This document shows positions 8,837-28,744 of a stretch of DNA of 64,000 nt, piece by piece. A program made the position numbers and the translations under genes. Below the pieces are notes generated by a model. The model searched no databases, was not told the DNA's origin, and saw only the letters and a program-made list of their open reading frames with translations. Origin of the DNA: an uncultured Roseovarius sp. (GTDB taxonomy: Bacteria > Pseudomonadota > Alphaproteobacteria > Rhodobacterales > Rhodobacteraceae); the NCBI GenBank assembly GCA_947496175.1, contig CANMBU010000003.1, positions 462,334 through 526,333 of the forward strand, in the 5' to 3' direction. Each line of letters starts with the position of its first letter. Position 1 is the stretch's first letter.

Positions 8837-8839
8837 GGT

Positions 8840-12582: not shown

Positions 12583-12596
12583 TAAAATGGCGGAGA
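12583..12596 (+). repeat. Distal att core (displaced tRNA-Ser 3' end)
   Basis: TAAAATGGCGGAGA identical to 30815-30828; followed by a degenerate GGGA..TTCGAAC T-arm copy. Confidence 0.88.
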
Positions 12597-12694
12597 AGCC
12601 GGGACTCAATTCGAACACTTTATTCGATGAGTTAGAGCGGTGGAACGCAGTCCTTGCTGAGCATAAAAACGAATTGCGGGGGCCGAGACCATGA
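12587..12694 (+). CDS. 35-codon frame giving the predicted recombinase C-terminus in the excised (attP) form
   Basis: MAEKPGLNSNTLFDELERWNAVLAEHKNELRGPRP*; same frame through the att core as the recombinase; stop overlaps the mobC ATG (ATGA). Confidence 0.6.
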   Translation: MAEKPGLNSNTLFDELERWNAVLAEHKNELRGPRP

Positions 12695-13080
12695 CACGGC
12701 ACCCTGCAAATTCACCTGAGCCGACCAAGCGTCTTGCGCCTTTTTCTCTTCGTCTGACGGTCGAAGAACGCGAACAGCTTGAACGCCAATCCGGTGGCCT
12801 TTCGCTCGGGGCTTACATCAAATCCGTCATTTTTTCAGATGACGCCCCCAAGTATCGCAAACGCCGCAAAGGTTCGACCGCAGAGCAACAACTGCTCGCC
12901 GAGATACTGGCGCGGCTTGGTCAAACGCGCACAGCCAATAACCTCAATCAGATCGCCAAGCACCTCAATCAAGGAACGCTGGTTGTGGATGAAGAATTAG
13001 AGGCTGATCTCAACCGCGCCGTGGCGGAAGTCGCCTGGATGCGCGCGCAATTGATGAACGCACTCGGGAGAAAGTCATGA
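12691..13080 (+). CDS. mobC: Relaxosome accessory protein (MobC-like, ribbon-helix-helix)
   Basis: FSLRLTVEERE RHH start; NNLNQIAKHLN MobC motif; coupled to relaxase. Confidence 0.85.
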   Translation: MTRHPANSPEPTKRLAPFSLRLTVEEREQLERQSGGLSLGAYIKSVIFSDDAPKYRKRRKGSTAEQQLLAEILARLGQTRTANNLNQIAKHLNQGTLVVDEELEADLNRAVAEVAWMRAQLMNALGRKS

Positions 13081-14351
13081 TCCTGATTGCCTCCCAACGT
13101 TCTGGTGCCCGTGATTTGGCTGATCATTTGATGAACGACATTGAGAATGATCATGTTGAACTGGCAGACCTCACAGGTTTTATGTCTGATGATCTACATG
13201 GGGCATTGGATGAAGCCTATGCCATTTCCAAGGCAACCAAGTGCCAGAAATTCCTTTTTTCAGTGTCCCTAAATCCACCCGGTGATGCTGTGATCTCCAA
13301 GGAAGAGTTTCAGGAGACGGCGGATCGCGTTGCAGAGCATTTAGGCATTCAAGATCAGCCGCGCGCACTGGTCATTCACGAGAAACAGGGCCGCCGTCAT
13401 GCGCACGTAGTGTTCTCAAGAATTGATGGTGAAAACTTAAAAGCCATTGAGCTTGGCCTCTTTAAAGCCAAGCTGCGTGATCTTTCCCGTGATCTGTTTT
13501 TGGAACATGGCTGGAGACTGCCAGAGGGATTGAGCGTCTACGGGAATAAAAACCCGCTCAACTTCACACTCGCCGAATGGCAACAGGCGCAACGCATTGG
13601 CGTTGATCCAAGAGAGATCAAACAGGCATTTCAGGATGCCTGGGAGCAATCAGATGATTTGAAGTCCTTGTCCAATGCTCTTGAGGACAAAGGGTTATTT
13701 TTGGCCAAGGGAGATCGCCGTGGATTTGTCGCTCTTGATATTGAGGGGAATATCTATGCGCTGGCGAAATGGACGGGGCTTAAAACCAAGGAGGTGAAAG
13801 AGCGGTTGGGGTCGCCTGACGCGTTGTCGTCGGTGTCTGACACACTGGTCGCGTTGAAACGCAAGAAGACCACGCAGGTTCGCGACTACATCCTGCAGGT
13901 CAAGGATCGCCACGCCAGAGAAATGCGCCCCTTCTTTGAGGAACGTGCCAGTCTCGTCACAACCCAAAGGAAAGAGCGCAGCACTCTCAAAGCAAAACAG
14001 GACGCGCGATGGATTGCAGAAACTAAAGAGAGATCAGACCGCCTCAATTCTGGTTTGCGAGGTCTCTTTGATCGTTTGACGGGCGCGCATGGCAAGATCA
14101 TCAAACAGAATGAGCGTGAAGCCTGGGCTGGTCTCAATCGCGATCAGGAACAGCGTGATACTTTGATCCTGGCGCAAATGACTGAACGCAAGGAGTTGCA
14201 GGAGCGCGCCTTAAAAACTCGCCACAAACATCGTCTTGAACGCAAACAAATGGCCCATGTTGTGCGCCACTACATGAACAACCCTGAGCACGATAACAGC
14301 CCGCGCCGTACGCGGCATCGGTCACAGGAACCACCGGGCTTTAGTCGCTAA
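13077..14351 (+). CDS. Relaxase/mobilisation nuclease (MOBP-like) with C-terminal coiled coil
   Basis: SVSLNPP motif II; VIHEKQGRRHAHVVFSR HUH motif III. Confidence 0.88.
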   Translation: MILIASQRSGARDLADHLMNDIENDHVELADLTGFMSDDLHGALDEAYAISKATKCQKFLFSVSLNPPGDAVISKEEFQETADRVAEHLGIQDQPRALVIHEKQGRRHAHVVFSRIDGENLKAIELGLFKAKLRDLSRDLFLEHGWRLPEGLSVYGNKNPLNFTLAEWQQAQRIGVDPREIKQAFQDAWEQSDDLKSLSNALEDKGLFLAKGDRRGFVALDIEGNIYALAKWTGLKTKEVKERLGSPDALSSVSDTLVALKRKKTTQVRDYILQVKDRHAREMRPFFEERASLVTTQRKERSTLKAKQDARWIAETKERSDRLNSGLRGLFDRLTGAHGKIIKQNEREAWAGLNRDQEQRDTLILAQMTERKELQERALKTRHKHRLERKQMAHVVRHYMNNPEHDNSPRRTRHRSQEPPGFSR

Positions 14352-14401
14352 TCCGCGACACACCCTCAATCCACATCATTCATATCCAATAGGAGATTGC
14401 C

Positions 14402-16219
14402 ATGTCCTGGCACATCAAAACTGCGGTCCTTGCGACCGCACTGGTAACCCTTTGTCTGTTCACATCTGATCCCGCCTTTGCAGACTTCGTCTGGCGTAAT
14501 GGTCGTTGGGTGGACAATTACACTTACAGACCCGCTCGCGATCCATTGATCTGGCTCTCATTTATGAGACTTATTCTGGTCGCAGGGTCTGCCGCCCTCG
14601 GCTTTGCGATTGGGTGGTTCTTCTCGCCCCAGGGTCATCCAGCCCGTCAAATCATACTCATTCTTCTTGGTGTTGTCGCAATGGGTGTGGTTCTCATTGA
14701 TCAAAGCGCCTTGGGATGGAGCACCGCAACCCTGATGGCTATTGTTGGTTTTTTCTGGGGTATTGGCTTCTGGCTTGGCAAGGGGCTGAAACAGGTCTTT
14801 GATACTCCAACAACCTTTGGTTCTGCCAAATGGGCAGATGCGGAGCATTTGACCCAGAAAGGTCTCTTCACCAAAACCAAAGGTCTTTTGTTGGGACTGG
14901 CCTTTGATGGCAATCTGATGTCCCGTATTTACTACTCGGGTGATCGTCACGCCCTGACCGTTGCGCCCAATCGCTCGGGCAAGGGATTTGCCCATATAAT
15001 TCCAAACCTTCTTAAATATCTTGGCTCGGTTCTGGTGATCGATCCTAAGGGTGAGAATGCCATTATCACTGCCAAGAGACGAGAAGAGATGGGCCAAAAG
15101 GTTCATCTGATTGACCCCTGGGATATTGCGGCAACGAAGTCTGGCTTTGAACCCGCCAGGATTAATCCTCTTGACTGGATTACGATGGATGATCCTGACG
15201 CGCCAGAGAACGCCAAGCTTCTAACAGACGCCCTGGTGCAATCCAAACCCAAGAGTGATCCGTTCTGGCTGGAAGAGGCCAAAGCTCTTTTGCAGGGCTT
15301 GATCCTGCTCGTTGCCTTGGACGAAACCTACGAGGGACGGCGCAATCTGGGAACTGTCCGTGATCTTATGCTGTTGGATGGGAAAGAGATGAAGGCGCTG
15401 TTTCAGTATATGGCCAACTCCGCTCATCCTTTGATCGTCTCCACAGGATCGCGTTCCTTGCAAAAGGAAGAAAAGCTGATGGCCAATGTTTTGGCCTCGG
15501 TTCAGGCGGAAACCCATATGCTGGACAGTCATCGTGTTCGTGATGCGCTGTCGGCGTCTGACTTCAGCTTTGAAGACCTCAAGAAAGACCCAATGTCGGT
15601 GTTTCTGATCCTGCCAGCAGATCGCCTGAACTCCTTCAATGCATTTCTGCGTTTGATGGTCCAACAGGCGATTACTGTGAATGCCCGCAACATCACGGAC
15701 AAACCAGAAAAGCCTGTGCTTTTCATTCTTGATGAAATGCCAGCCTTGGGACGTCTGTCGATGCTGGAACAGGCCTATGGGCTGATGGCGGGTTTTGGTA
15801 TGCAGTTCTGGGGCATCGTCCAGGACTTGAGCCAGCTTCGCCGTGTTTATGGGGAAGATTATGAGAGCTTCATCGCCAATTGCGGGATGGTGTCCTACTT
15901 TGGCTCCCCTGACAAACGAACGGCGGAATATTTCTCTTCCCTTTGCGGGGTCACTACTGTGCCCAATTTGAGCACGGCGGTTGCATCGGCGGTCAGTCAT
16001 AATTTTGGTTCCGGCGGTGGCGGCAGTGAATCCACCACCAGTACGGACACACGCTCGGCAACACAGCGCAAACTGGCCTATCCCGATGAATTGATGCGGA
16101 TGCATCAAGACCAGCAACTCATCTTCATTGAGAACACTGACCCGATCCTCTCAGAGAAGATCAAGTGGTTTGAAGACCCGGAGCTCTCCAAGCTCGGTGT
16201 AGATACCCACAAGTCTTAG
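14402..16219 (+). CDS. VirD4/TraG-type type IV coupling protein
   Basis: N-terminal TM segments; TFGSAKWA; Walker A APNRSGKG; VIDPKGEN; Walker B FILDEMPALG; QDLSQL. Confidence 0.9.
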   Translation: MSWHIKTAVLATALVTLCLFTSDPAFADFVWRNGRWVDNYTYRPARDPLIWLSFMRLILVAGSAALGFAIGWFFSPQGHPARQIILILLGVVAMGVVLIDQSALGWSTATLMAIVGFFWGIGFWLGKGLKQVFDTPTTFGSAKWADAEHLTQKGLFTKTKGLLLGLAFDGNLMSRIYYSGDRHALTVAPNRSGKGFAHIIPNLLKYLGSVLVIDPKGENAIITAKRREEMGQKVHLIDPWDIAATKSGFEPARINPLDWITMDDPDAPENAKLLTDALVQSKPKSDPFWLEEAKALLQGLILLVALDETYEGRRNLGTVRDLMLLDGKEMKALFQYMANSAHPLIVSTGSRSLQKEEKLMANVLASVQAETHMLDSHRVRDALSASDFSFEDLKKDPMSVFLILPADRLNSFNAFLRLMVQQAITVNARNITDKPEKPVLFILDEMPALGRLSMLEQAYGLMAGFGMQFWGIVQDLSQLRRVYGEDYESFIANCGMVSYFGSPDKRTAEYFSSLCGVTTVPNLSTAVASAVSHNFGSGGGGSESTTSTDTRSATQRKLAYPDELMRMHQDQQLIFIENTDPILSEKIKWFEDPELSKLGVDTHKS

Positions 16220-16292
16220 TCCAGCACATCGCTCATGCTCCTCCCATTCTGGGGGGAGCACCTTTCCCACTTTCATATGAGGAGGTCAGACA

Positions 16293-17201
16293 ATGGCCGA
16301 TCCCAAAGACCCGTTTAATCGTATCACCAATCCTGACGGCACGCCCGTGCGCGACAAGGACAACGCGCATCCTGTTTTAAAACCCGTCAATCAAAACCTG
16401 CGTCCAGCCCAAAACCTGGCCCCAGGCGGATCAATGGGCATTCGGCAACGTAAGTCCAGTGACCTTGTCCCGCAGCGCCCATCAGTTGAGATTATCAACA
16501 GAATTGATACTGATACGCATCGCTATATTGATGGTCGCATCACAACCATGCCTGACATGCGTGTCATGGCGATGATCAATGACAAGCCCTCGCCAGTTGG
16601 GATTGAAGAGGGGCATGTTGATCAGCTCGTCCTCATGCAAATGGACAAGACCGTCGCGCGCTATAATCGTGGTTGGGAAATTGACCCGCAAACGCCTCAG
16701 CACAAACAGGCGATACAATTTTTTAGAGAAGAGTTTGATCCCTCCTACGAAAAGCAAAGATCAAATGATCTGGTCCCAAAACAGCAACCAGAAAAGGAAC
16801 GTATCAAGTTCACAAAATCACCAGAACGTTCTGAAGAAAGCACCCGTTCAGGTGCGGCTCCTGCGTTTCAGAATGTGTCCAGTGAGCTTTCTTGTGAACC
16901 CGTTCGCAATACAAATTGGGTCAAAGGCAAAATCTTGTCCATGCCAGGCTACACCTTCCATGCCAAAGTGTTTGATTTGCCCTCTTCATACGGGATTGAC
17001 GATGGGCGGATTTCCAAACTGCAAGTTCTGAAACACGGCCAGGAAGTGGTCAACTATGAACGAGGCTGGGATCAAAAACCCGATACGCCCGAACAGGTTG
17101 AAGCTGTACATCGCATTAGACGTGGTCTTGGTGACATGCCTGAGAAAGAGTTTCAGGCGTACCAGCACATGCCCGACAAAGGGCATGGGTTTGAGCGGTA
17201 G
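16293..17201 (+). CDS. Hypothetical protein with a duplicated ~65-aa domain
   Basis: GGAGG RBS; two homologous units ending ..GIEEGHVDQL..YNRGW and ..GIDDGRISKL..YERGW. Confidence 0.8.
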   Translation: MADPKDPFNRITNPDGTPVRDKDNAHPVLKPVNQNLRPAQNLAPGGSMGIRQRKSSDLVPQRPSVEIINRIDTDTHRYIDGRITTMPDMRVMAMINDKPSPVGIEEGHVDQLVLMQMDKTVARYNRGWEIDPQTPQHKQAIQFFREEFDPSYEKQRSNDLVPKQQPEKERIKFTKSPERSEESTRSGAAPAFQNVSSELSCEPVRNTNWVKGKILSMPGYTFHAKVFDLPSSYGIDDGRISKLQVLKHGQEVVNYERGWDQKPDTPEQVEAVHRIRRGLGDMPEKEFQAYQHMPDKGHGFER

Positions 17202-17326
17202 GTTGCTCTAAAACTACTTGATTGTATTTTCGTCAAAGCGCGATGCAAAGACTTAGGTACAACTATGCAGAGCCTTGACCAGCTTGAATCGAACCAGAGT
17301 GGAACACAAAATGAGAAAGAATTCAG

Positions 17327-17575
17327 TCAGATACTTCTTCTCGAGAAAGGTTGCATTTTGACGTTTCGGGAAACTACAAAATCATTTCCAACCTTTTCCT
17401 TTAACTCAGCGAGACGGCCCTCAGCGACTTCAACATCTGCACAGCGACCTCTGTCAAAAACTTTCACAAGCTTAACAAAGTCCACGTCAGCCAATACTTT
17501 ACCATAGTCTAATTGCCCGCCAGAGTGGTTCATCGACATACGTTTCGCCGCTCGCATACTCAATGTACAAATCAT
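17327..17575 (-). CDS. Small protein directly downstream of the S8 peptidase (possible I9/prodomain-like partner)
   Basis: 82-aa ORF, same strand, 30 bp after the S8 stop; alternating beta/alpha pattern. Confidence 0.55.
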   Translation of the reverse strand: MICTLSMRAAKRMSMNHSGGQLDYGKVLADVDFVKLVKVFDRGRCADVEVAEGRLAELKEKVGNDFVVSRNVKMQPFSRRSI

Positions 17576-17605
17576 AGCTCGAACCTACCACATTGATTAG
17601 AAAGG

Positions 17606-18820
17606 TTAAATAGGAACATTTTCCTTTATTTGTGGCAATTTAATGATGCCAAACCCTTGTTTGTCGTGGTGGATACCTGTGTCGTCACATAAATCTTTCA
17701 ATGTTTCTTTAACATAGTCAACTCTCTGTTGCAAAGAATTGTCTTGTTTTTCAAAGTCTTTCTTGCACAACACTTGTGATAAAATTGCTGTCACAATTGG
17801 AGCAGCAAAAGAAGTACCATCCATCTCAAAAATCGATCCATCTGAATAAGCAATGTCAACACCGATACCGGGAGCTACAGCGTCCAAGCCTGGCCCAAAG
17901 CAGGTTCCATGGTGAAAGAAAACAGATTGGCCGTCAGACGTTCGCCCTATATTTCCAACATCTTCCAGGGATTCCACCTGACTGATATTGTAGTCTGTTC
18001 CAACTGGTGCTGCGTCCACCAACCCTATGCTTCCCACTCCTACCACCGTAGGCAACTCCGCTGGCATTGCCAATTGGCGGACATTTTCGTTTCCAGCAGC
18101 AACCACAACGGCACAACCATTCAACAAAGCAAACTCAATTTCTTCTTCAAAACGCTCCTTCGCTTCAACGTGCTCTAATTTGGTATCGTCAAAATGAAAG
18201 CCGCTTGAAATGTTGATCACGTCAACACCATAGTCTTGAACTAGGGCCGAGATACCTGAACACGCTGTCTTGGTATCTAAATACTCACCGGAAGCATCTG
18301 CAGCATCCCACAGGAATATCTCATAGTCAGAAACGCCATCTAGAACGCTCGAAACGACCGTGGCAACATGAAGCCCGTGAAAATTGACGGGTGAATTTTC
18401 ACTGGGCAAATTCTCGTCTAATCCAACTACGTGCAAAGGATTTGCATCAGGTGAGCGAGGCACGCCGATGTCTATCACTCCGATCCTAGTCCTTTTATCC
18501 TTACCAAAAGCAACACCCCCGCAAGTCAAGTTTCTCCACCAACTGGATTCCCCGTTCGCTTTAATTTCCGGACAATAAATTTTTTGTTCCCTTTTCGAGT
18601 ATTCCAGACTCTTTGTAACACGCCAGTGCCCATCACATGGGATAACACGAACTTTGTCCGGGTAAATTCCCTCCAAAACTGGAACTTCAACGCACCCGTC
18701 CTCCATCGTTGGAAATAGTCGATCGTGCACGCGAGCCCCATAGTGAAACTCTAATAACGCACCAATCGGTTGATCTACGGGACCAAGAACTTGTACCTTC
18801 TTACCACTCATGTTTTGCAT
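17606..18820 (-). CDS. S8 (subtilase) serine peptidase, no signal peptide
   Basis: Catalytic motifs IGVIDIG, HGLHVA, AAGN, GTSFAAP. Confidence 0.88.
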   Translation of the reverse strand: MQNMSGKKVQVLGPVDQPIGALLEFHYGARVHDRLFPTMEDGCVEVPVLEGIYPDKVRVIPCDGHWRVTKSLEYSKREQKIYCPEIKANGESSWWRNLTCGGVAFGKDKRTRIGVIDIGVPRSPDANPLHVVGLDENLPSENSPVNFHGLHVATVVSSVLDGVSDYEIFLWDAADASGEYLDTKTACSGISALVQDYGVDVINISSGFHFDDTKLEHVEAKERFEEEIEFALLNGCAVVVAAGNENVRQLAMPAELPTVVGVGSIGLVDAAPVGTDYNISQVESLEDVGNIGRTSDGQSVFFHHGTCFGPGLDAVAPGIGVDIAYSDGSIFEMDGTSFAAPIVTAILSQVLCKKDFEKQDNSLQQRVDYVKETLKDLCDDTGIHHDKQGFGIIKLPQIKENVPI

Positions 18821-18837
18821 AACCTTTGGGAATCATT

Positions 18838-19197
18838 ATGGACTTTGAAAATTTAACAGAAGATCAACTTCGCGCTCTAGAAGAATTAGGGGAAGAATTG
18901 GAAAAAGTTTCCTGGCAGCCTGAAACTATTCCGATGAAGCCGTATGGATTGGGGAAAAAGATCAGTAATGCGAAACTGCTCGCGATAAACTACGTCAATG
19001 AAAACCGTGAGGAAATGCAAAAGCATGTTTGCAAAGACAATGCGGTAAAGATTGAGATACAAGCTGCCGGCGCCAGTACAGCAACAGTCGCTGACGCCTT
19101 TCAGGCCATGGCAGGTGCACCAATACCAGTTTGGAATCTAGCAAATGTCGTATGTATGTTAGGTCTCGGTAAATTTTGCCAATGGAAGGCAAAGTAA
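18838..19197 (+). CDS. Hypothetical protein divergent from the S8 peptidase
   Basis: 119-aa ORF; acidic N-terminus; small-residue/hydrophobic C-terminus (..VVCMLGLGKFC). Confidence 0.7.
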   Translation: MDFENLTEDQLRALEELGEELEKVSWQPETIPMKPYGLGKKISNAKLLAINYVNENREEMQKHVCKDNAVKIEIQAAGASTATVADAFQAMAGAPIPVWNLANVVCMLGLGKFCQWKAK

Positions 19198-19237
19198 ACT
19201 AGGAACGATGTTTTTTCTGCATTCTACATTGAGGATT

Positions 19238-19858
19238 CTAAACCACCGCCACCTTGTTTACCGCCCGTATGATCGTTTGCGGTGACAACTCTAACTCTTC
19301 TGCCAACTCATCGACAGACGCCATCCCCGAATGCAGTCTTTCCTTTAGGATCGGCACCACCTCCGGCGGAATAGCCCTGGGCCTGCCAATATGCACACCC
19401 CTGGCACGGGCGGCTTCCATCCCTGCCTTGGTGCGTTCGCGGATTTGCTCGCGCTCAAACTCTGCAAACACGGCCAATTGACCATATAGCAATCGTCCAA
19501 TGGATGTGGTGGTGTCGATCCTTTGGGTGAGGGCTATGAAGTCCACGCCATTCTCGCGCAGATCTTCGAGAAGTTGTAGGAGGTGCAGCACAGATCGGCT
19601 GAGACGATCCAGTTTCCACACTACCAGCGTGTCGCCGGAACCAAGCTCTCCTAGGAGTGTTTCGAGCGAGCATCGATCTTTGATAGCGCCTGAGACGCCC
19701 AAGTCACCATAGATGGTATCGCACCCTGCCTCTTTGAGCGCATCCACCTGTAGAGCCTCAGATTGGTCAGCGTCCGACACGCGGACATAACCGATTTTGC
19801 GCCCTTTTGGTCTAAGCTCTTGTTTGGACTCTGTGTTTCTCTGTTGAGGTTTGTTCAT
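19238..19858 (-). CDS. Small serine recombinase (Hin/Pin-type invertase/resolvase)
   Basis: IGYVRVS..Q catalytic Ser, LVVWKLDRLSRS, IDTTT..GRL, ERT.AGM.AAR..G..GRP, C-terminal HTH. Confidence 0.93.
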   Translation of the reverse strand: MNKPQQRNTESKQELRPKGRKIGYVRVSDADQSEALQVDALKEAGCDTIYGDLGVSGAIKDRCSLETLLGELGSGDTLVVWKLDRLSRSVLHLLQLLEDLRENGVDFIALTQRIDTTTSIGRLLYGQLAVFAEFEREQIRERTKAGMEAARARGVHIGRPRAIPPEVVPILKERLHSGMASVDELAEELELSPQTIIRAVNKVAVV

Positions 19859-19915
19859 TGGCTCAGTGTGCCACTTGAGTGGCTTCGTACAAGCGGAATT
19901 CATGGCATTTTCTCC

Positions 19916-20060
19916 TTGTCAAAAGGGGTCCCTTTGCGAAGCCGCTGAATCCGAGGTTTTGCGCGATCTCATTGATCCGAGATTTCTGTGGATAAACGGG
20001 GATTTGGTGCGTTTGCCCCGCCGCGTGGTAAGAGTTATCTAAAGGGACCCCTTTTGATGG
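19916..20060. repeat. Two inverted 26-bp hix-like recombination sites enclosing ~120 bp
   Basis: TTGTCAAAAGGG-GT-CCCTTTGCGAAG (19916-19941) and TTATCTAAAGGG-AC-CCCTTTTGATGG (20035-20060); perfect 17-bp inverted repeat 19919-19935/20041-20057. Confidence 0.75.
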
Positions 20061-20093
20061 GTGATTGGTTGCGAATGAAGACCGCATCATAGC

Positions 20094-20981
20094 TTGCCAA
20101 AGGGAGACCTCATGTCGTTCAAGTTACTATGCCAAACCGAACGTTTGTCGGTTCTTACTCTTGTTACTTGTCTTTTAATTCCTGCCACCGCCAATAGAAC
20201 CGAAGCACTTAGTGACCTGAGTGAACTCTGGCCTGCTCCCCTTTCGGTCGAAAGTAGCTTTGAGGGACTCGGCATTGATATCAAAGGCATCGCGATGACC
20301 ATGTCGATGAAAGAGGCGCAATCAGTTCATGGCGGTGATTTCTCGAATGCAATATGGCGGTTTCGCAATCAAAACCGCCTCTCCAAGGAGAAGGTAACCA
20401 GACAGGATGTCGGCAACCTGAAAGTCAAATTCGATCAACCTGGTGCCTACGATGACCTCCGCACATTAGGATCGCACTGGCACACAGGTAATCGCATGAT
20501 CCGTATGACAAGGGATGTCGAATTCTATGACGTCGACCGACAACCTTCGGCACAGAACTTCGTGGCATCTGTGATCGAAAAATATGGTACGCCTTCTAAC
20601 GGTCCATATCGTACCACGGGTAAATATCGCTATACGGTCAAACCGCATGAGGCGCGTCGATGGATGTTTGACAATGCGCAGCTCTCAACGACCTGCGAAG
20701 TCTACGATCTTCCCGTTGATCTCAAGGACGCAACACGGCTCAAGGAGGACAACCTGGAAGCCATCATTGCTGATCTTGAAACGCCTGAGGCTTGTGATGG
20801 ATACATGGAAATTTTGCATGAAATCACACCAGCATCCACTGTCAGCAAATATCGTATTCAAATCACCGATGTTCGATTGCTGATGATTGATGCACTCAAT
20901 GAACGGCGCGTCCAGGCAAATATGGAAGCCTACTTTGAAAGGGCTTTACAATCTGGCAACAAAAACACTCCGGACTTATGA
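20094..20981 (+). CDS. Secreted hypothetical protein
   Basis: 295-aa ORF with signal-like N-terminus (SVLTLVTCLLIPATA); likely start nearer 20112. Confidence 0.75.
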   Translation: MPKGDLMSFKLLCQTERLSVLTLVTCLLIPATANRTEALSDLSELWPAPLSVESSFEGLGIDIKGIAMTMSMKEAQSVHGGDFSNAIWRFRNQNRLSKEKVTRQDVGNLKVKFDQPGAYDDLRTLGSHWHTGNRMIRMTRDVEFYDVDRQPSAQNFVASVIEKYGTPSNGPYRTTGKYRYTVKPHEARRWMFDNAQLSTTCEVYDLPVDLKDATRLKEDNLEAIIADLETPEACDGYMEILHEITPASTVSKYRIQITDVRLLMIDALNERRVQANMEAYFERALQSGNKNTPDL

Positions 20982-21304
20982 AGAGCGTCTCGGAAGAAAA
21001 AAGTAAGTGGGGCGTGACGACCCCTCCGTCTCTTTAATTTCCCACTAACAGGGTTGCTCCTGCAACCCTCTGCCCTTCGGCGAGAAATGGGGGTGCAAGG
21101 GTCAAGATCAATCGATGGCGGGCGCAGGTATCTTCGATGCCTAGCCTCGGGAGACCGGCTATTGATCTTGATCCCGCGCCGGGGGCGGTAGCCCTAAGAA
21201 TCAACTCAAGCATGCAGAAGTCATTTGATTTCCCGCAAAGAAGCAATAGGCTAGCCTTTAGTGCAACGCCTGCGCGCTATTGGCTTTTTATTTGGGGGAA
21301 TTGA

Positions 21305-22222
21305 ATGTTGAGGCTTCGAAAAACCAACGGTTTGAAAATCATTACAGCAATAATTTTTGCTGCGCTTTCAGCGCCTTCTCTGGCATTAGCTATGGAATGT
21401 AACCTGGACACGAGCTTCACACATAAGACCAAACACCATGGAAAACGTCCTGTTTACACAGATAAAAACTCTGTGTTTTTCACGGCACCAATGGCAGTGA
21501 ATACTGACGGTGCACCAATCTCGTACCACCCCGATGACCCATGGGGAAACACTGGTAAAGCAATTAACACGATTTGCAATGGAGCCAATGTGATCCTGCC
21601 AAACGGAAAAAAGATCAGGTATGATAAATGTACCAAACTTATTGAAGGTTTTAAGGAAGCAAAGGCATCCGGTTGGGAAAACAAAGCCACAGCAAGAATG
21701 GACTTCTATGGTATAGCCTCCTCGGGCTTTACTCCCTGCATAAATGACAAAGAGCCATACGAAGGATATTTTGTATCCACTACCTCGGTCATTGCAGACA
21801 AGTCGAAAGCGGTGTGCGATCAAGATAGATATCTTAATTCGATCGAAATACCGTTCGCAATTTATCCCGGTGCGAAAAAATTTACTTCACACGGCGTCGG
21901 AAAAAGAGACGTCGTTGTCTATTTCAATCCAGAAAACAGTGCGATCGAATTCGGGATAATAGGAGACCGTGGTCCAAAATGGGGACTTGCAGAAGGGTCA
22001 ATCGCTTTTGCCCAGTCTCTGAGACAAACCGACAGTCTTCCGACGTCGCGTAAAGACACATATAATTTTGGTGTTAGCAAGGTTCATGGGCTGATTTTGC
22101 CAAACGCTAGTTTAGAACCACCTTACACTGCCGAAAACGTAAGAACCCGAGCCAGAAACGAGTTTAACAACTGGGGAGGAATGGACCGCCTAAATGCATG
22201 CATTAAGCAGCATGGCGGTTAA
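21305..22222 (+). CDS. Secreted GH75 (chitosanase)-like glycoside hydrolase
   Basis: Signal peptide; AVNTDG, YLNSIEIPF and GIIGDRGP..AEGSIAFA resemble GH75 catalytic motifs. Confidence 0.6.
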   Translation: MLRLRKTNGLKIITAIIFAALSAPSLALAMECNLDTSFTHKTKHHGKRPVYTDKNSVFFTAPMAVNTDGAPISYHPDDPWGNTGKAINTICNGANVILPNGKKIRYDKCTKLIEGFKEAKASGWENKATARMDFYGIASSGFTPCINDKEPYEGYFVSTTSVIADKSKAVCDQDRYLNSIEIPFAIYPGAKKFTSHGVGKRDVVVYFNPENSAIEFGIIGDRGPKWGLAEGSIAFAQSLRQTDSLPTSRKDTYNFGVSKVHGLILPNASLEPPYTAENVRTRARNEFNNWGGMDRLNACIKQHGG

Positions 22223-22261
22223 ATTCCAAAGTAGCGCGGCTCATGTATGGGACATTTCTCA

Positions 22262-22960
22262 ATGAAGTTTTTAGTACTGTCTTTTTTTGTTTTCTTGGCG
22301 ATACCGTCTTCTGCAAAGGCTCAAGGTCTAAGAGATTTTATCAAAGAAACTATCAACGAAGCCGCTGGACCTCCTGGAAGGAGTTTTGGGGACAAGTCAC
22401 ATTTGATGGTTGTGAAAGCGGATGGGGGCGTCACATTTATCTTTCTTTGCAGCGCGGGCAAAGAGAATGGTGCGGGCGACAAATTGGTGAATGCAATTTT
22501 TGATGGACTGAACCAAGCGACCGCTGGTGTTTCTGTCTTTTTCAGATCTTGGATACGGAGAGAGATCGAAAAGGGTGTGGTAAACGAGGGCGATGCGTTC
22601 TGTGGTGTCTTTGCCAAAAAAACTGGTGGTAAGAGCAAAGCCAGGAATGTACGAGACGGCAGCATCTATACAACCTCGTGGCGAAATGGCGAGAAGGTTC
22701 AATCGGTAACTGATGAAAGGGCCTGTAAAAAAGTGCACAAGAGATACTTTTGTTTCGAAGTCGCCGAAGGGCCTTCGGATGACGGTGAAATCGACGGTGT
22801 AAGTGGATGCTTTGAAGCTAAAGTCGATGGGCGGCTGGTTTCCTTTTCGTTTGGCCGAGGAGAGACTATTCCGGTCGAAACACGAAGTACTTTCGGCCCT
22901 AAAGACTCAAAATCTTCAGAGGGTTGCGTGGTTCGAAAATTGGGCGTTGAAAAGAATTAG
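22262..22960 (+). CDS. Secreted Cys-containing hypothetical protein
   Basis: Signal peptide MKFLVLSFFVFLAIPSSAKA; six Cys; follows the GH75-like gene. Confidence 0.7.
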   Translation: MKFLVLSFFVFLAIPSSAKAQGLRDFIKETINEAAGPPGRSFGDKSHLMVVKADGGVTFIFLCSAGKENGAGDKLVNAIFDGLNQATAGVSVFFRSWIRREIEKGVVNEGDAFCGVFAKKTGGKSKARNVRDGSIYTTSWRNGEKVQSVTDERACKKVHKRYFCFEVAEGPSDDGEIDGVSGCFEAKVDGRLVSFSFGRGETIPVETRSTFGPKDSKSSEGCVVRKLGVEKN

Positions 22961-23297
22961 TTGAGAACAAAAAGCAATATTGCAGAAAGCGCTGCCAAGG
23001 CCGAATTTTGAGATTTGATGAATACTAAGGGTGCTCGAGAAGTCGCGATAACCTCTTGGTCGGGTCCAGCAATGAAATGCAGGCGGCATCCAACCCGCGC
23101 AGGGATGGTCTCCATGAAATGGTCAGGATTGCATAAGGGAAGGAACGCCCTTTGCTCGATGGGTGTGGGGAGAGAGAAATCTCCCACGAGGGATCAAACA
23201 CCGATATGTTTGTGTGGTCAAATCAGGCTCAACGCCTGTTCCTGACCACTTGCTTTGGGGGATAGAACGGGGGAGCGCAGCAACCCCCTTCTCAAGT

Positions 23298-23324
23298 GGG
23301 GCGGTACTACCGCCCCCATCTTGC
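23298..23324 (+). other. Candidate origin of transfer (MOBP-type nic site)
   Basis: 9-bp inverted repeat GGGGCGGTA-c-TACCGCCCC immediately followed by CATCTTG|C, like RP4 TATCCTG|C and R64 CATCCTG|T. Confidence 0.55.
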
Positions 23325-23481
23325 GATGGACGCTATCAACATCATGCTACTCCTTTAGCATCTCAATTGCGGGTCAACCCATGTCAATTTCACCAACACC
23401 GTATCGTGGATAAGCTACAATCTTAGATTGACTCGCAGCATTGCTTCTCATCAGTCTGGTTAGAAGGAAAAGGCAACGATT

Positions 23482-24789
23482 ATGAGATTAGAAGAAATTA
23501 GCATTGGCGCTTTGTCGGTAAATCGCGCGAATGATCGTCACGGTGAATTGGAAAACGAAACGGCAGCAATTGCCTGGCTTTTCAATACACGCGAAACTCA
23601 CATGAAAAACCTCGCCAAAGACATCGTTGCGGAGGGGCGAATTTTTGAGCCACCACTCGTCTCGCCCGAAGGATCAAGTTATTTGGTCTTCGATGGAAAC
23701 CGTCGTGTCACCTGTTTAAAGCTACTGGAAAAACCTTCCCGTGCGCCAACAACGACTCTGCAAGAATACTTTGCGAACTTAAAAGCTGATTGGCAGGGAG
23801 ACTTTCCAAAGAAAATCCTATGCCAGGTTGAAGACGACAGAGACCTCATCGACGATATTCTTTACAGAAGGCACACTGGAACGCTGAATGGTGTTGGCCA
23901 GACAACCTGGGACGACCGAATGAAAGACAACTTTGTCGCTCGTTCGGGTAAGAAAACAGGCTTCAACATCGCTGATGAAATCGAACAACGATTGGAAGCA
24001 GCAAACCTGTTACCATCTACCAAAATCCCACGGTCGAACCTGAACCGCCTTCTGTCGTCAGAAGCAATTAGAAACAGGTTCGGATTTACGGCAAAAAACA
24101 AAGTCTTCGACTACACGCATAATCCTGATGTTGTATTAAAAACGCTTGCTGCTCTCGCTGATGATTTTGCAGCTGGACGGGTAGTTCTTGGCGACATTTG
24201 GGACAATGAAAACAAGTTGAAATATGTAGACGGATTAGAAGACCAAGGGTTACTTCCTACGGACGAAGACATCATCGATAACGAGAGCGGCACGGGCAAA
24301 CCAAGCCCAAAACCGAAGCCCAAACCAAAACCGAAGCCCAAACCAAAACCCACGAAACGAACGACTTTGATCCCGCAAAAAGAATTCGGAATTTTATGGA
24401 CGGGCAAACAACACCGCATGCAGGCGATCTGGGAAGAACTACAGTTTCACCTAAACCCCGAAAAGCATCCGAACGCGGTTTCCGTTCTGTTTCGAGTGCT
24501 CTTGGAGTTAGCCGCTGACCATTACGCAAGTGAACATGGCGTGGCGTTACAACAAAACGACAAACTGGCACGAAGGGTCGAAAAGGTCGGTGATGCGTTG
24601 TTTAGCCAAGGCAAAATCGACAAGAAGCAGAGAACAGCAACAAAGAAGTTTGGTCAGCTAGACCAACTGGTATCAGCAGATACGCTTAACCGATATGTCC
24701 ATTCACCCAACTTCGCGCCTTCGGCCAAACACCTAGAAGCGCTTTGGGATACCATGGCCGATCTGATCGTCGCCTGCCTCAAAGGTTAG
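23482..24789 (+). CDS. ParB/Srx-like N-terminal domain, PK linker and HEPN-like C-terminal domain
   Basis: EPPLV..VFDGNRRVTCL; (PK)n linker; LFRVLLEL...LNRYVH helical C-terminus. Confidence 0.65.
   Translation: MRLEEISIGALSVNRANDRHGELENETAAIAWLFNTRETHMKNLAKDIVAEGRIFEPPLVSPEGSSYLVFDGNRRVTCLKLLEKPSRAPTTTLQEYFANLKADWQGDFPKKILCQVEDDRDLIDDILYRRHTGTLNGVGQTTWDDRMKDNFVARSGKKTGFNIADEIEQRLEAANLLPSTKIPRSNLNRLLSSEAIRNRFGFTAKNKVFDYTHNPDVVLKTLAALADDFAAGRVVLGDIWDNENKLKYVDGLEDQGLLPTDEDIIDNESGTGKPSPKPKPKPKPKPKPKPTKRTTLIPQKEFGILWTGKQHRMQAIWEELQFHLNPEKHPNAVSVLFRVLLELAADHYASEHGVALQQNDKLARRVEKVGDALFSQGKIDKKQRTATKKFGQLDQLVSADTLNRYVHSPNFAPSAKHLEALWDTMADLIVACLKG
24308..24351 (+). repeat. 18-bp tandem repeat encoding the PKPKPK linker
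   Basis: CAAAACCGAAGCCCAAAC x2 plus a partial unit. Confidence 0.8.
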
Positions 24790-24814
24790 CATTTCAAAGA
24801 TTTTGAAGGTCTGG

Positions 24815-25108
24815 TCAAAACAGGCTACCCTGACGCGAAGCCTCAACATAGGCCTTCCATTGCTTTGATTGCGCTTCTTTGTTGAGCCAATCGGTCACAA
24901 GGGTGATCACTTCGTCGATTTCAAGAACGGGATCCATCGGTCCAAAGTAATGCGATCTGTAACCTGTGTCTGAGATGGGAATAGGTTGGTCATCCTCAGC
25001 ACAAATTGCGACGTGATCTATAACGCCATACTGCCTTGGTGTGTAAGAGAGCCGAATGGATCGGCCCTCCCATGTGATGTTGATGTCAATCGTTTCGCCG
25101 TTACGCAT
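24815..25108 (-). CDS. Small hypothetical protein ending in a clamp-binding-like QGSLF motif
   Basis: AGGAG RBS; start overlaps the upstream gene's stop; C-terminus ..RQGSLF. Confidence 0.7.
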   Translation of the reverse strand: MRNGETIDINITWEGRSIRLSYTPRQYGVIDHVAICAEDDQPIPISDTGYRSHYFGPMDPVLEIDEVITLVTDWLNKEAQSKQWKAYVEASRQGSLF

Positions 25109-25337
25109 CGCTCTGCTCCTCAGTCTCAACAGTGATTGGAAAGAGGTAGATGTCATCTGTGATGATCTGCGTGCCTGAGGTTCGGATACAAATGCCTCCG
25201 TCCTTGGCACGGTTCCAGGCGACACCGATGCGTTCCAGCCGTGCCTTGCGGCCATAGCCTTTGGGTGTTTTGACGATCCAGTCGGGATCATTGTTTGCCT
25301 CGGGTGAGTGTTGTGAAGTTTGACGAGTTTCTGTCAT
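25101..25337 (-). CDS. Small hypothetical mobile-element protein
   Basis: GAAAGGAA RBS; ERIGVAWNR..GGI.IR beta-rich core. Confidence 0.7.
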   Translation of the reverse strand: MTETRQTSQHSPEANNDPDWIVKTPKGYGRKARLERIGVAWNRAKDGGICIRTSGTQIITDDIYLFPITVETEEQSDA

Positions 25338-25667
25338 GGCTTTTCCTTTCTGTTATTCCGCCAGACCATCTGGCCGATGTCTCGGGAAAAAGCGGACCAG
25401 CTCTCACACATCATGCGCTACACGGTTCGAAGCGAATGCGAAGAAGTGGTGCGGGCCGCGCATTGATGGGATGAGGGATGATCTGCTTCCCATAGAACAA
25501 ACGGCTGATGATCTGGTGTGATTAAGGCAGCAAGGAACGCGTCAGGAAATCAATCCAAACAGTGCCTCACGCCAGCGGAATTATGGTCAGGTCATTTGGT
25601 AAAAAGGACCCTGCTTTGAGGTTGCATCGCAGAGGGTGTGTTAACTGAAGTAGCGCAAGGCTAATCA

Positions 25668-26123
25668 TTAAGTAGTCGACCACAAGCTGCGTGTGTTTTG
25701 GCCTTCACCTATAACTATCCGCCAAGCTGTAAACGCTGCGCGAAATCTGCCAGCGGATTCAAGGTTGTCATGAAGGGAAACAAGAGCTGACTCACTGGAG
25801 TAACTCTTCGTCTGTGTTGCAAGCGCAAGTCTGTTCTCAAGTCTAACGACAGAAAGAAGCGGCGCACCGAAGCCGTTGGTTTCGATCAGGCTCGTTTCGT
25901 CAACCTCAACTCGGACATCTGGGACAATTAGACCGTCCCAATTCTCGTTGTCTTTGCTTTCGAAGCAGTGCGATTGAAACTCACCAGAAAGGAATACTGC
26001 CGTGTTGACGTTTTCAATATGGCCCACAAGGATTATCTTTCCATAAGTGTCGGTGGGCAAAATCAGACTTAGGGGTTTTGCCTTCCCGACTGGGCCAACG
26101 GTGAATTCATTAGGTGACAACAA
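25668..26123 (-). CDS. Hypothetical beta-rich protein
   Basis: 151-aa ORF, third gene of the TIR cluster. Confidence 0.7.
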   Translation of the reverse strand: MLSPNEFTVGPVGKAKPLSLILPTDTYGKIILVGHIENVNTAVFLSGEFQSHCFESKDNENWDGLIVPDVRVEVDETSLIETNGFGAPLLSVVRLENRLALATQTKSYSSESALVSLHDNLESAGRFRAAFTAWRIVIGEGQNTRSLWSTT

Positions 26124-26210
26124 CTCGAATTCTCCTAACCAATTAGAAAAGATGATCGTACTTAAATGATCCCAATAAACCTACGAGTCCTAGCTCAAAG
26201 CTTGACCATT

Positions 26211-26375
26211 TCACTCCCAGCCTCGCCGAACATCGGTGCGGTGGCACGCGGGGCAATGTACGGCGCTGGTTGGTCGATTTTCTTGACGGGCTTCACGACG
26301 CTCATCCTCATTGAGTACTTCCGTTTCGAAGCGATGTCCGCAATTGTTGCAACGAAATCGAACTTGTTCAGGCAT
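26211..26375 (-). CDS. 54-aa zinc-ribbon protein
   Basis: CNNC..CPAC; ATG overlaps the TIR gene stop by 8 nt. Confidence 0.75.
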   Translation of the reverse strand: MPEQVRFRCNNCGHRFETEVLNEDERREARQENRPTSAVHCPACHRTDVRRGWE

Positions 26376-27312
26376 GGCTAATACCTGCCTGTTCAATAAA
26401 CTCGTTCCACAAATACTCTGCTGCTTGCTCAGGATTTAGACGCTCAGGACCATTTCCAAACACTGACATTGTCACGACCAGGAATAGTTCATACTCGTCA
26501 GAGGATACGTTGAAACCACCGTTTGCCGTATTGTCTGCGGCATTTTCGTTAAAGGAAAAGTAGATGTCTCCCAAGGCAAAACCCGCATTTCGGCAATGCA
26601 CAGTGATATGCGCCGTTCCATGTTGACGCCCTTGATTGATGACAGTACTACCAAAAGAGTTCGCGCCTCTATCTACAAATCGGCCACGCAGGCCATCTAC
26701 CGCATCTATTTCCTCAATCGCACGTTTGAAATAATCCCTAATCGTGTTGAAAGACGCATCGCGATATTCGCTAAGGTCGATTTCATCAAAATCGCGTTGA
26801 ACGCGATAGCGTGGGACCGCCTTTTGTTGAGGCGTTGCCACCGCTTCATAAGCGGCAATTTCTGGTTTCTTAAACTCACCCGCAGTGACTATGCGTCGAA
26901 TTTCCTGAACCACGTCCAGGTAAGCCGTATTATCGTTCGTCCATTCTGAGATTGGGAGACCGTCTTTTGGCACAGCTTTCAAACGCCTCAGTTGAGGCAT
27001 GGCGGCCCAATCGCATGGCTCTACGATGATCGGCACAACACGCGCCTCCTGAGCAGCATGCCGCTCCAATGCTCTTTGCATTTCCTGATCCACACAATAG
27101 TTAGATGCAATGAAATCAGGGCTAACCATCAGCAAAAAAATGTCTGCCGTCTCTAGCTCTCTATTGATCTCATCGTCCAAGACATCGCCGGCCAAAATCT
27201 CACGATCGTACCACGTGTCGATCTGGCCTTCCCGTTGAAGGTTGGCGAGGTGAACATGGAGGCGAACAAGCGCATCGGTGTCTCGATGTGAGTAGGATAT
27301 AAATGCCTTCAT
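26368..27312 (-). CDS. TIR-domain protein with uncharacterised C-terminal domain
   Basis: AFISYSHRD, WYDREILAGD, LMVSPDFIASNYCVDQEM (catalytic Glu kept), VVPIIVEPCDW. Confidence 0.9.
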   Translation of the reverse strand: MKAFISYSHRDTDALVRLHVHLANLQREGQIDTWYDREILAGDVLDDEINRELETADIFLLMVSPDFIASNYCVDQEMQRALERHAAQEARVVPIIVEPCDWAAMPQLRRLKAVPKDGLPISEWTNDNTAYLDVVQEIRRIVTAGEFKKPEIAAYEAVATPQQKAVPRYRVQRDFDEIDLSEYRDASFNTIRDYFKRAIEEIDAVDGLRGRFVDRGANSFGSTVINQGRQHGTAHITVHCRNAGFALGDIYFSFNENAADNTANGGFNVSSDEYELFLVVTMSVFGNGPERLNPEQAAEYLWNEFIEQAGISHA

Positions 27313-27466
27313 AAAGTTGCTCGTGTTTATCTTTTGTTCTATTTTATCTACCTTGGGACGAGTTGGCAACGCCGTTTCGGCATCTAGCGTGTCCAAGAAG
27401 ACTAATTGGATGCGCAGTGAACCGGTGTAATAAGGAATTGAGCTTCTTCCACTTAGGATCATTCGC

Positions 27467-28450
27467 ATGACCGAAAATGATAAGTCACCTCACCCCAGCT
27501 ATGACAATACTCTAAAAGAAGAGACCTTGAACTTTCTTAAGCTTTGGGCTGGTGAACCAGGAAATCTGCTGAAAGAAACACTGCCAGGCGAAAGTAAAGA
27601 CGCAACCTTCTCTCTAGATAGGCAATACCTTTTTTCTGAGACGATTTTCCTAGCAGACCGAAACGCCGAAGAGCACCAAGCTAGGGAGCGGAAGCACATA
27701 TGCGAAGACATCGCGGTACAGTCTTTTCCCTTAGAACGTATCTTTGCCCCAACAGAAATCGACGAACTTGAGCAATCATTTTACGAAATTTCATCGCTTC
27801 AAACTATGCACCACAACCAGACAATTTCCGTGGATCATAAGCTCAAAGCGGATTTCAATGATGAGGGTGGAACTGCTAGGCTGAATTTGATAAAGTTCTT
27901 TCTTATCAAGCGTATGTGCTGTATACTTGATGGTAAGAATTTAACCATTGAAACCCGTAACAAGTCATTAGTGAACCACAAGGAAATACGACTCAAACAC
28001 CTGGAACTAGAAATTTCGAACCTACTTCGAGAAGCGTTCGCAATTTGTGTTGATGACCAGGTTGAGAAACGTGATTTCCAAGAGCGAATTATGAAACGCG
28101 CTCTTCAAGCTGATGACGCCACGTCCTTTCCAACAGAAGCGCCCGAACTTTACGTAGATCGCAAAGACGAAACAGAGCCACCGGCTAAATTCCTGATGAG
28201 GGTCTACAAAAAATGGGCCAAAACAGGCTTAACTAGGAGAAGTATTGGCAATCTTGATCCTACTTTAATCCGCGCATTGTATCGAGAAGACATCCCTGTC
28301 GAGATCGATCAGATGTTCCCAAAATCACCGGGTGGACGACCAAAGAAAAGCCGTTCTCTAGAAGAGGAAGCCGCTGCACGTAAAAAAAGGCGTGAGGCTA
28401 ACCGTGAACAAGTCAGAAAACATCGCGAACGAAAACGAAATCCACAGTAA
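27467..28450 (+). CDS. Hypothetical protein with basic C-terminal tail (possible DNA-binding)
   Basis: 327-aa ORF; GGRPKK AT-hook-like motif and RKKRREANREQVRKHRERKR. Confidence 0.7.
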   Translation: MTENDKSPHPSYDNTLKEETLNFLKLWAGEPGNLLKETLPGESKDATFSLDRQYLFSETIFLADRNAEEHQARERKHICEDIAVQSFPLERIFAPTEIDELEQSFYEISSLQTMHHNQTISVDHKLKADFNDEGGTARLNLIKFFLIKRMCCILDGKNLTIETRNKSLVNHKEIRLKHLELEISNLLREAFAICVDDQVEKRDFQERIMKRALQADDATSFPTEAPELYVDRKDETEPPAKFLMRVYKKWAKTGLTRRSIGNLDPTLIRALYREDIPVEIDQMFPKSPGGRPKKSRSLEEEAAARKKRREANREQVRKHRERKRNPQ

Positions 28451-28483
28451 CAACATTACACATCTACAGTAATCTGCTTTCTG

Positions 28484-28512
28484 TTGACATAAGCTTCGAA
28501 TCCCTTCATAAG
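28484..28512 (+). promoter_or_regulatory. Sigma70-type promoter
   Basis: TTGACA-N17-CATAAG upstream of the 44-aa ORF. Confidence 0.6.
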
Positions 28513-28551
28513 GTTAATCACTGCAATTGATAAACCTGAAAGGTTACAAAA

Positions 28552-28686
28552 ATGGCTGTAAGTAATGAACAACTGAAGCAAGCGGAAGCCGTCGGCGCAC
28601 GCGGCGGCAATGTAAACACCTCTACACTCCCTTATGGTGACAAGGTGAAAATCGATGCGGCTGTCCGCAAAGGCAAAGGTATGTGA
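28552..28686 (+). CDS. 44-aa small protein missed by the ORF track
   Basis: GAAAGG RBS; MAVSNEQLKQAEAVGARGGNVNTSTLPYGDKVKIDAAVRKGKGM*; own promoter and terminator. Confidence 0.65.
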   Translation: MAVSNEQLKQAEAVGARGGNVNTSTLPYGDKVKIDAAVRKGKGM

Positions 28687-28713
28687 AGCTTACTTCTCGT
28701 ACATGCCAACATT

Positions 28714-28744
28714 GGGCGGCGGAGAACTAATCTGCCGCCCTTTT
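28714..28744 (+). terminator. Intrinsic terminator
   Basis: GGGCGGCGGA-gaactaa-TCTGCCGCCC followed by TTTT. Confidence 0.7.

Follow-up and report, generated by a model that had tools for sequence, protein, structure and literature searches.

Can a subtilisin-like protease that has neither an export signal nor a propeptide of its own be held latent inside a bacterial cell, and what would it cut when it is released? This question is raised by a three-gene locus of an uncultured Roseovarius sp., found in a stretch of 64,000 nucleotides (assembly GCA_947496175.1, contig CANMBU010000003.1, positions 462,334 to 526,333) that is hereafter called the window and whose first letter is counted as position 1. 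The locus contains a gene for an S8 (subtilase) peptidase, a small gene directly downstream of it and, on the other strand, a divergent gene for a helical protein. Our reading is that the three genes form a latent-protease cassette carried as cargo of a mobilizable island, in which a detached prodomain plugs the S8 protease and the helical protein is its substrate, and we give this reading a probability of roughly 0.5. An initial annotation of the locus had placed an 82-aa open reading frame (ORF) 30 bp downstream of the S8 gene and a 119-aa ORF 17 bp away on the opposite strand, and both lie at these positions. The features of the locus are as follows.

17606..18820, minus strand: S8 (subtilase) peptidase (PF00082), predicted cytoplasmic, 404 aa (probably 401 aa, from M4 at 18811)
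17327..17575, minus strand: 82-aa basic protein, prodomain-like partner, starting 30 bp after the S8 stop codon
17345..17362, minus strand: codons for the tail VKMQPF (residues 72-77) of the 82-aa protein, proposed P6-P1 with P1 = F77, from the conserved aromatic residue and the covariation with the partner loop
18821..18837: divergent intergenic gap of 17 bp between the S8 gene and the 119-aa ORF, read from the sequence
18838..19197, plus strand: 119-aa acidic all-alpha protein, divergent to S8 (alternative TTG start at 18826)
18928..18945, plus strand: codons for the loop IPMKPY (residues 31-36, W26+5..W26+10) of the 119-aa protein, proposed recognition site with predicted cleavage between Y36 and G37, from the least ordered part of the model and the tail match

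The S8 protease and its detached prodomain-like partner

The product of 17606-18820 matched Pfam Peptidase_S8 (PF00082) over residues 109-378 (E = 3.7e-15, 56.4 bits against a cut-off of 21.8), which assigns it to the S8 family, and it carries the Asp-His-Ser order and the oxyanion-hole Asn of that family. Catalytic D117, H148 and S337 and oxyanion N244 showed no variation across seven diverged relatives in the extended-family alignment, and the closest solved relatives were subtilisins and intracellular subtilisin proteases (E about 1e-15). No N-terminal hydrophobic segment or signal peptide was detected, the maximum 19-residue Kyte-Doolittle value being 1.52 at an internal strand, and there was no Pfam match to I9 or any other propeptide. 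The description of an S8 peptidase with an intact triad, lacking both a signal peptide and a cis propeptide, was thus borne out by Pfam, the alignment and hydropathy. Residues 1 to ~90, which precede the catalytic domain, form a beta-rich domain and not a propeptide; the corresponding region of the relatives gave weak Pfam matches to CarboxypepD_reg, DUF4198 and Big_1, and it is probably an Ig/transthyretin-like sandwich. Because the homologues and the database entry start at M4, S8 is probably 401 aa long and the divergent gap 26 bp. The protein is strongly acidic (60 D+E versus 33 K+R, net charge about -27).

An exhaustive profile search delimited an extended S8 clade, characterized by the N-terminal sandwich and the S8 domain, of 1518 clusters at E <= 1e-30. 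Its members fall into a short class of ~390-405 aa, to which the window protein belongs, and a long class of ~480-520 aa, which carries an extra ~100-aa N-terminal extension. Judged from its sequence, the window protein is a cytoplasmic subtilase with intact catalytic residues, from which the prodomain-like N-terminal extension that its longer relatives have in cis has been lost.

The 82-aa protein is homologous to this extension, as shown by profile comparison at the sequence level. When the alignment of the small-protein family (9 sequences) was compared by hhalign with the N-terminal extension found in 58 relatives of the long class, the two matched end to end over 75 columns with a probability of 90.3% (E = 1.5e-6); the probability was 82% with 7 small-protein sequences, and reversed, column-shuffled and unrelated control alignments gave at most 0.7%. 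In view of this end-to-end match, we regard the small protein as homologous to a domain that is part of the protease itself in sister proteins, where it occupies the place of a subtilase prodomain, and as detached from the protease here. Both the cis extension and a separate small protein are present at some long-class loci (L008, L052 and L054). Two such loci, each a long-class S8 and small-protein pair, occur in one alphaproteobacterial genome (L054, G650:C456 613-1931; L052, G650:C397), and one S8 of this genome is interrupted by an in-frame TAA.

The predicted structure has a fitting topology. AlphaFold2, run with 6 homologues, gave the 82-aa protein a beta-alpha-beta-beta-alpha-beta fold with a predicted local distance difference test score (pLDDT) of 76.6. 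In a Foldseek search with this model, the propeptides of Tk-subtilisin, subtilisin E and BPN' made up about one quarter of the top 40 PDB matches, the remainder being other ferredoxin-like domains, and the best E value of 0.07 was not significant; 2z57_B reached a probability of 0.97 and a template modelling score of 0.60, likewise not significant. The initial annotation had called this ORF a trans-encoded prodomain-like partner. Homology to the cis extension and the topology uphold that name, and sequence comparisons gave no support for membership in I9, whether of MEROPS or of Pfam. Since neither the small protein nor the cis extension of the long-class relatives matched Pfam I9, we use the term prodomain-like and not I9. 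PDB sequence and PADLOC searches with the 82-aa protein also gave no match.

Inspection of the C-terminal end of the small-protein family revealed an aromatic residue conserved 7 residues after beta4, the last strand. Seven of 14 independent homologues terminate exactly at the conserved position (..STY*, ..HPF*, ..RPF*, ..HPF*, ..QAF*, ..QPF* and ..HPV*, where the asterisk is the stop). A C-terminus at the conserved aromatic residue fits, by analogy, a processed propeptide that plugs the cleft, and the processed BPN' prosegment offers a parallel to small proteins ending at this position, as does ORF2 of Aeromonas, the C-terminal residue of which lies at the catalytic centre. The charges of the partners are opposite, +5 to +7 for the small proteins versus about -27 for S8. 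A Shine-Dalgarno-like site, GGTAGG, precedes the 82-aa ORF, which is probably co-transcribed with S8. In the Rhodobiaceae loci (L001-L004, e.g. L003:3940-4191) the small gene has been called as 68 aa, and use of an upstream ATG extends it to 83 aa including the first strand (MILSLSMRAAKR..).

Conservation of the trio and covariation of tail and loop

Close relatives of the three proteins were sought by a word search over 5.8 billion proteins. They proved to be very rare, with 3 S8 proteins above E 1e-27, 4 small proteins and 3 helical proteins, and every readable locus of these close relatives had the identical layout of S8, small gene downstream and divergent helical gene. Among phage records and in IMG/VR, only generic S8 domains were found. 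On the wider scale, the S8 and small gene pair was present in 15 of 17 independent related loci, L031 and L055 being the two without it, and the full trio in 7 diverged lineages with 25-55% identity, the helical gene being divergent in all of them. The small ORFs therefore co-occur with S8 in other genomes, so that a lack of co-occurrence, which the initial annotation had named as refuting its reading, was not observed. Both are more than chance ORFs, since their protein sequences and their places beside S8 are conserved at diverged loci. The trios outside the window, with the tail of the small protein and the loop of the helical protein where these were compared, are as follows; the last three were obtained from the closest short-class neighbourhoods.

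L001-4/L007: Rhodobiaceae metagenome-assembled genome, same kind of mobilizable backbone; S8 45% identity
L006: short Logan contig; S8 34% identity
L039: chromosomal locus; S8 38% identity; tail LKAAAF, loop PVARSF
L061 (partial): tail RFMRPF, loop PMIRSF
L065/66: tail PRVHPF, loop PRPIPF (L065)
L067: tail PKAQAF, loop PLVETF

In a maximum-likelihood tree the trio loci fell into three short-class subclades with an unresolved backbone, and in several short-class loci the S8 and small gene pair stands beside other neighbours, without the helical gene. The helical gene was found solely beside this S8 clade (7/7 occurrences); it was not found in 400 other genomes of the phylum, nor in 10 genomes of the same genus that are without the island. 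Regarding gene annotation, the 126-aa helical gene of L039 (6380-6760, minus strand) is absent from public gene calls. Some short-class loci have two nearby S8 genes, namely L062 (332-1540, minus strand, and 5001-6437, plus strand) and L063 (2183-5424, plus strand). The tandem S8 genes of L063 are separated by a 113-aa gene, and LSAKTF, a motif resembling the tails, occurs near the N-terminus of the first S8 (2/300 shuffles).

The 119-aa protein was modelled by AlphaFold2 as a compact all-alpha domain of 7 helices (pLDDT 84, predicted template modelling score 0.78). Residues 24-43, which follow the acidic first helix, form an unstructured loop with the lowest confidence of the model (pLDDT about 55). 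Invariant residues of the family are G18, L21, W26, C65, P97, A102, L108, G109 and C114, and its most conserved part is the C-terminal segment (..ANVLxxLGLxKFC..). This segment touches on a further claim, that the protein ends in a hydrophobic helix. The helix is only moderately hydrophobic, with a 19-residue Kyte-Doolittle value of 1.41, and the values of the homologues (0.55-1.66) are moderate and inconsistent; AlphaFold2 packs it inside the globular all-alpha domain. On the basis of hydropathy and of this packing, we reject a conserved transmembrane helix. Foldseek searches of the model against PDB and BFVD returned nothing above a probability of 0.15, and globin, death-fold and helix-turn-helix readings were dropped as no match exceeded this value. 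No match was obtained for the protein in Pfam, PDB sequences or PADLOC.

The tail of the small protein in the window, VKMQPF77, resembles the helical loop IPMKPY36, and in 5 of the 7 trios an aromatic residue lies exactly 10 residues after the invariant Trp. The resemblance was evaluated by a permutation test, in which the match of each tail with the loop of its own locus was compared with matches to loops of other loci, and the permutations that reached the score of the true pairing were counted. With 5 loci, the true pairing ranked first among 120 permutations. The 7-locus test adds L065 and L067, both obtained after the hypothesis had been formed, and here the true pairing was reached by 26 of 5040 permutations with 4-mers, by 2/5040 with 5-mers and again by 2/5040 with 6-mers. 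The corresponding count was 3/5040 when the fixed site W+7..W+10 was used without search, and 14/5040 when only P4-P2 were scored and P1 was excluded. When the whole helical protein was searched, the loop was the top tail match in the window (score 18, 35/2000 shuffles), in L065 (7/2000) and in L067. Tail-like motifs in the neighbours of loci without the helical gene (patatin, PLD, CHAT, MFS and others) were none above shuffles. These sequence results are suggestive but real, and indicate that tail and loop may be seen by the same binding site, for which the S6-S1 subsites of the protease are the simplest candidate. The 119-aa protein is then, going by the covariation, most likely the physiological substrate of S8. 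The initial annotation had seen in it a target that S8 would activate and a toxic or membrane-acting protein; the exposed loop that covaries with the inhibitor-like tail speaks for the first part, and the membrane action is not retained, the protein not being a predicted membrane protein.

Several results weigh against a plug and substrate relationship. The restriction of the covariation test to the loop was chosen after the window pair had been seen, and an unrestricted test of the tail motif against whole proteins in 4 loci gave 4/24, which is not significant; in L001, L006 and L039 the best tail match lies outside the loop of the helical protein. On the side of the small protein, the Foldseek matches remain below significance at the best E value given above, and ferredoxin-like folds are common. 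No Pfam match at E <= 10 was found for 4 members of the small-protein family, neither to I9 nor to Fervidolysin_NPro or ORF_2_N, and comparison of the family by hhalign with 4 genuine fervidolysin/I9 prodomains from other loci gave probabilities of 0.1-0.2%. No effector, DNA-binding or membrane domain was recognizable in the helical protein by Pfam, PDB-sequence and Foldseek searches. Finally, the trio of L039 stands in an ordinary-looking chromosomal neighbourhood.

Proposed mechanism, genomic context and competing explanations

In the mechanism that we propose, the 82-aa protein would help S8 to fold, in the manner of a subtilisin propeptide or of Aeromonas ORF2, and would stay bound as an inhibitor with its tail (..VKMQPF77) in the S6-S1 subsites. 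The 119-aa protein would dock its flexible loop (..IPMKPY36, followed by G37) in the same S8 cleft. Once the plug is removed or decays, S8 would be free to cut the 119-aa protein between Y36 and G37 and thereby to detach its acidic helix 1 from the conserved remainder; this cleavage would switch the activity of the helical protein.

The cassette lies in an island whose limits were set by direct repeats and GC content.

12583..30839: low-GC integrative mobilizable island, 18.2 kb, at tRNA-Ser(CGA)

The repeats are located at 12583-12607 and 30815-30839, the second one within tRNA-Ser(CGA) (30820-30909), and GC content is 44-46% in the cassette region and 44-52% in the island versus 56-61% in the flanks. 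The island encodes MobC, a relaxase, a VirD4-type coupling protein, DUF7678, a small invertase, a PD-Lambda-5_A-like protein, a TIR protein and a large serine recombinase, and the cassette occupies a variable cargo slot with the DUF7678 gene on one side and the invertase on the other. From this mobile, defence-rich context only, we infer a defence, addiction or regulatory role for the cassette; the role is most likely a conflict or maintenance function of mobile elements, such as abortive-infection-type defence, addiction or a proteolytic regulatory switch. Toxicity and a release of the protease on infection, as proposed in the initial annotation, are likewise suggested by this context only.

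A more specific proposal, which we hold only tentatively, is that of an undescribed three-component conflict system of mobile elements, in which the plug tail mimics the cleavage loop of a helical pro-effector and the two co-evolve, their specificity code being a private one. The plug would be removed on a trigger such as infection by a phage, entry into a new cell by transfer or the shut-off of translation, a cut after the W+10 aromatic residue would free an active, possibly toxic C-terminal domain, and sister clades would use the same core with patatin, PLD and CHAT effectors.

The explanation that survives best beside the plug and substrate switch, although we think it unlikely, is that only the small protein and S8 belong together. 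The small protein would be an external folding helper or transient inhibitor of a housekeeping or nutritional protease, and the 119-aa gene would be separate, e.g. a regulator of the operon. The pair of S8 and small gene indeed has a much wider distribution than the helical gene, as the extended clade comprises 1518 clusters and the pair stands beside many different neighbours, and the ASP-ORF2 pair demonstrates that such pairs can serve plain maturation (PMC5638518). A divergent small gene at a distance of 12-46 bp, the range of start-to-start gaps in all 7 trio loci, is also typical of local regulators. However, the occurrence of the helical gene solely beside this S8 clade (7/7), together with its absence from the 400 other genomes of the phylum, and the covariation of its loop with the tail of the small protein argue against an unrelated neighbour, and no helix-turn-helix or other DNA-binding fold was detected in the 119-aa protein as would suit a regulator. 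As the gap is only 12-46 bp, the promoters of both units must lie within each other's coding sequence. The 5' transcript ends of S8 and of the 119-aa gene probably overlap in antisense, and the divergent genes of the trios could interfere with each other's transcription. A scan for promoter and terminator consensus sequences gave no signal above the shuffled expectation.

Less likely again is an addiction module of the toxin-antitoxin type, in which free S8 would be toxic, with the small protein as its labile antitoxin and the helical protein as an adaptor or as a further bait or inhibitor. Such a module would serve maintenance of the element and not phage defence. The order of enzyme followed by small inhibitor and the tight co-transcription resemble toxin-antitoxin pairs, mimicry between loop and tail suits a pseudo-substrate as well as a substrate, and 3 of the 4 readable trio contexts are on or beside elements with serine recombinases or mobilization genes. 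Against this reading, the trio of L039 is chromosomal with no mobile genes within 6 kb, and many loci of the pair are not obviously mobile.

An anti-defence or establishment function, in which S8 delivered to or expressed early in a new host would degrade host defence or regulatory proteins, is improbable: the Rhodobiaceae cassette does adjoin ArdA- and KlcB-like genes and a mobilization module, and a related island has ArdA near the same slot, but this function leaves the conserved, covarying, cis-encoded helical partner unexplained, the cassette also occurs away from transfer genes (L039), and the neighbouring cargo in the window island is of defence type (TIR, PD-Lambda-5-like).

Several observations concern the surroundings of the cassette and of its relatives. 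The PD-Lambda-5_A-like protein of the window island (435 aa, 23482-24789, plus strand) gave a full-length PADLOC match (best E = 5.3e-81) and contains a PK-repeat linker. In the related island L047 (G018:C1:2246500-2262500), the slot between DUF7678 and the invertase (6696-9310, minus strand) holds proteins of 743 and 129 aa with no Pfam or PADLOC match, a further cargo module of unknown kind in this hotspot. The trio of L065 adjoins a 318-aa gene (2412-3368, plus strand) with a faint Peptidase_U49 (Lit-like) match, followed by a large serine recombinase. On the conjugative Bradyrhizobium quebecense plasmid NZ_CP088023.1 (L050, 21224-36288), and also in L060, L029 and L056 from metagenomes, a conserved cluster is found in the order CHAT, CHAT, hypothetical, PLD (DrmC-like), DUF2252 and patatin, next S8 and the small plug in divergent orientation, and beyond them MerR, three unknown genes and dCTP deaminase. 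This cluster looks like an undescribed multi-effector conflict island with the same protease and plug core.

Relation to known systems and significance

In Aeromonas sobria, ORF2 is needed for the folding of the protease ASP and also inhibits it, with its C-terminal residue at the catalytic centre, as summarized in PMC5638518 (and in Kobayashi et al. 2015, JBC, cited therein). The present pair resembles ASP-ORF2 in that a subtilase without a cis propeptide has a small partner gene directly downstream (here with a 30-bp gap on the same strand; 15/17 loci). It differs in that ASP and ORF2 are exported, ASP-ORF2 being kexin-like and having no third partner, whereas neither S8 nor the 82-aa protein has a signal peptide; further, the 82-aa protein does not match ORF_2_N (PF18492) and derives from the N-terminal extension of the S8 clade itself. 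By analogy, the cassette would work most like ASP-ORF2, and also like SUB1-ProM and other propeptide-like inhibitors that stand alone.

Yeast PBI2 and Pleurotus POIA1 are inhibitors of the latter kind. SUB1-ProM of Plasmodium is a stand-alone subtilisin propeptide-like inhibitor that is encoded beside a subtilase gene and acts selectively in trans (PMC6993865). All three are free-standing proteins of the prodomain fold, encoded beside a subtilase gene and acting as selective trans inhibitors, and the 82-aa protein, with its prodomain-like predicted topology, would act in a similar way. Unlike the present system, they are eukaryotic, their target enzymes keep their own propeptides, and no substrate with a matching motif is co-encoded.

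A subtilisin-like protease without a signal peptide, PopC of Myxococcus xanthus, accumulates in the cytoplasm and is restrained by PopD, and regulated degradation of PopD leads to the cleavage of p25 to p17, according to the outline in PMC6434023 and references therein. The logic is similar to that proposed here, a partner-restrained cytoplasmic subtilase being released to cut one specific substrate. The difference is that PopC acts only after its secretion, on a substrate at the cell surface, and that PopD is not known to be prodomain-like.

The parallel that the initial annotation had drawn to proteases beside bacterial gasdermins and to IetAS fell away, there being no gasdermin or IetA ATPase gene at the locus. 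No neighbour had a Pfam or PADLOC match to gasdermin, the 119-aa partner being all-alpha without a PDB match, and IetA was not matched among the 8 neighbouring proteins scanned with PADLOC. The PADLOC 'subtilase' and IetS models match the catalytic domain only, both in the window S8 and in its relatives. An assignment of S8 as IetS was rejected, the IetS models covering only residues 318-353, i.e. 36 residues round the catalytic Ser (E = 1.9e-4). What is shared with these systems is that an S8 or other protease is encoded, on mobile DNA rich in defence genes, next to a small protein which may be its target; the candidate substrate here differs in being predicted as a 119-aa soluble helical protein without a known fold.

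A regulatory switch of comparable design is ImmA/ImmR, where an element-encoded metalloprotease cleaves a co-encoded helix-turn-helix repressor to flip the switch. Both use an element-encoded protease and a small co-encoded protein, the switch being a proposal in the present case. In contrast to S8 and its partner, ImmA is a metalloprotease and ImmR a helix-turn-helix protein, the 119-aa protein having no detected DNA-binding fold.

These comparisons suggest that the switch of protease, plug and substrate has not been described so far and is related to known pairs of proteases and prodomain inhibitors; to these, the present clade adds a protease that lacks its cis copy, a helical partner and the covariation of loop and tail. 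To our knowledge, the examples of subtilase propeptides that act in trans have so far been a small number of eukaryotic inhibitors and a single periplasmic chaperone of bacteria. In the present case, the combination of a cytoplasmic subtilase and a free copy of the prodomain extends over an entire bacterial clade (about 1500 clusters at 50% identity). One branch of the clade no longer has any cis copy and has acquired a helical partner of its own, the exposed loop of which tracks the tail of the plug. If the match of loop and tail reflects a shared binding site, it provides a testable cleavage site between Y36 and G37 and a swap of loop and tail for the specificity, and it would be a template for wiring latent proteases into the conflict modules of mobile elements. 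The 119-aa protein would then add a new small effector fold.

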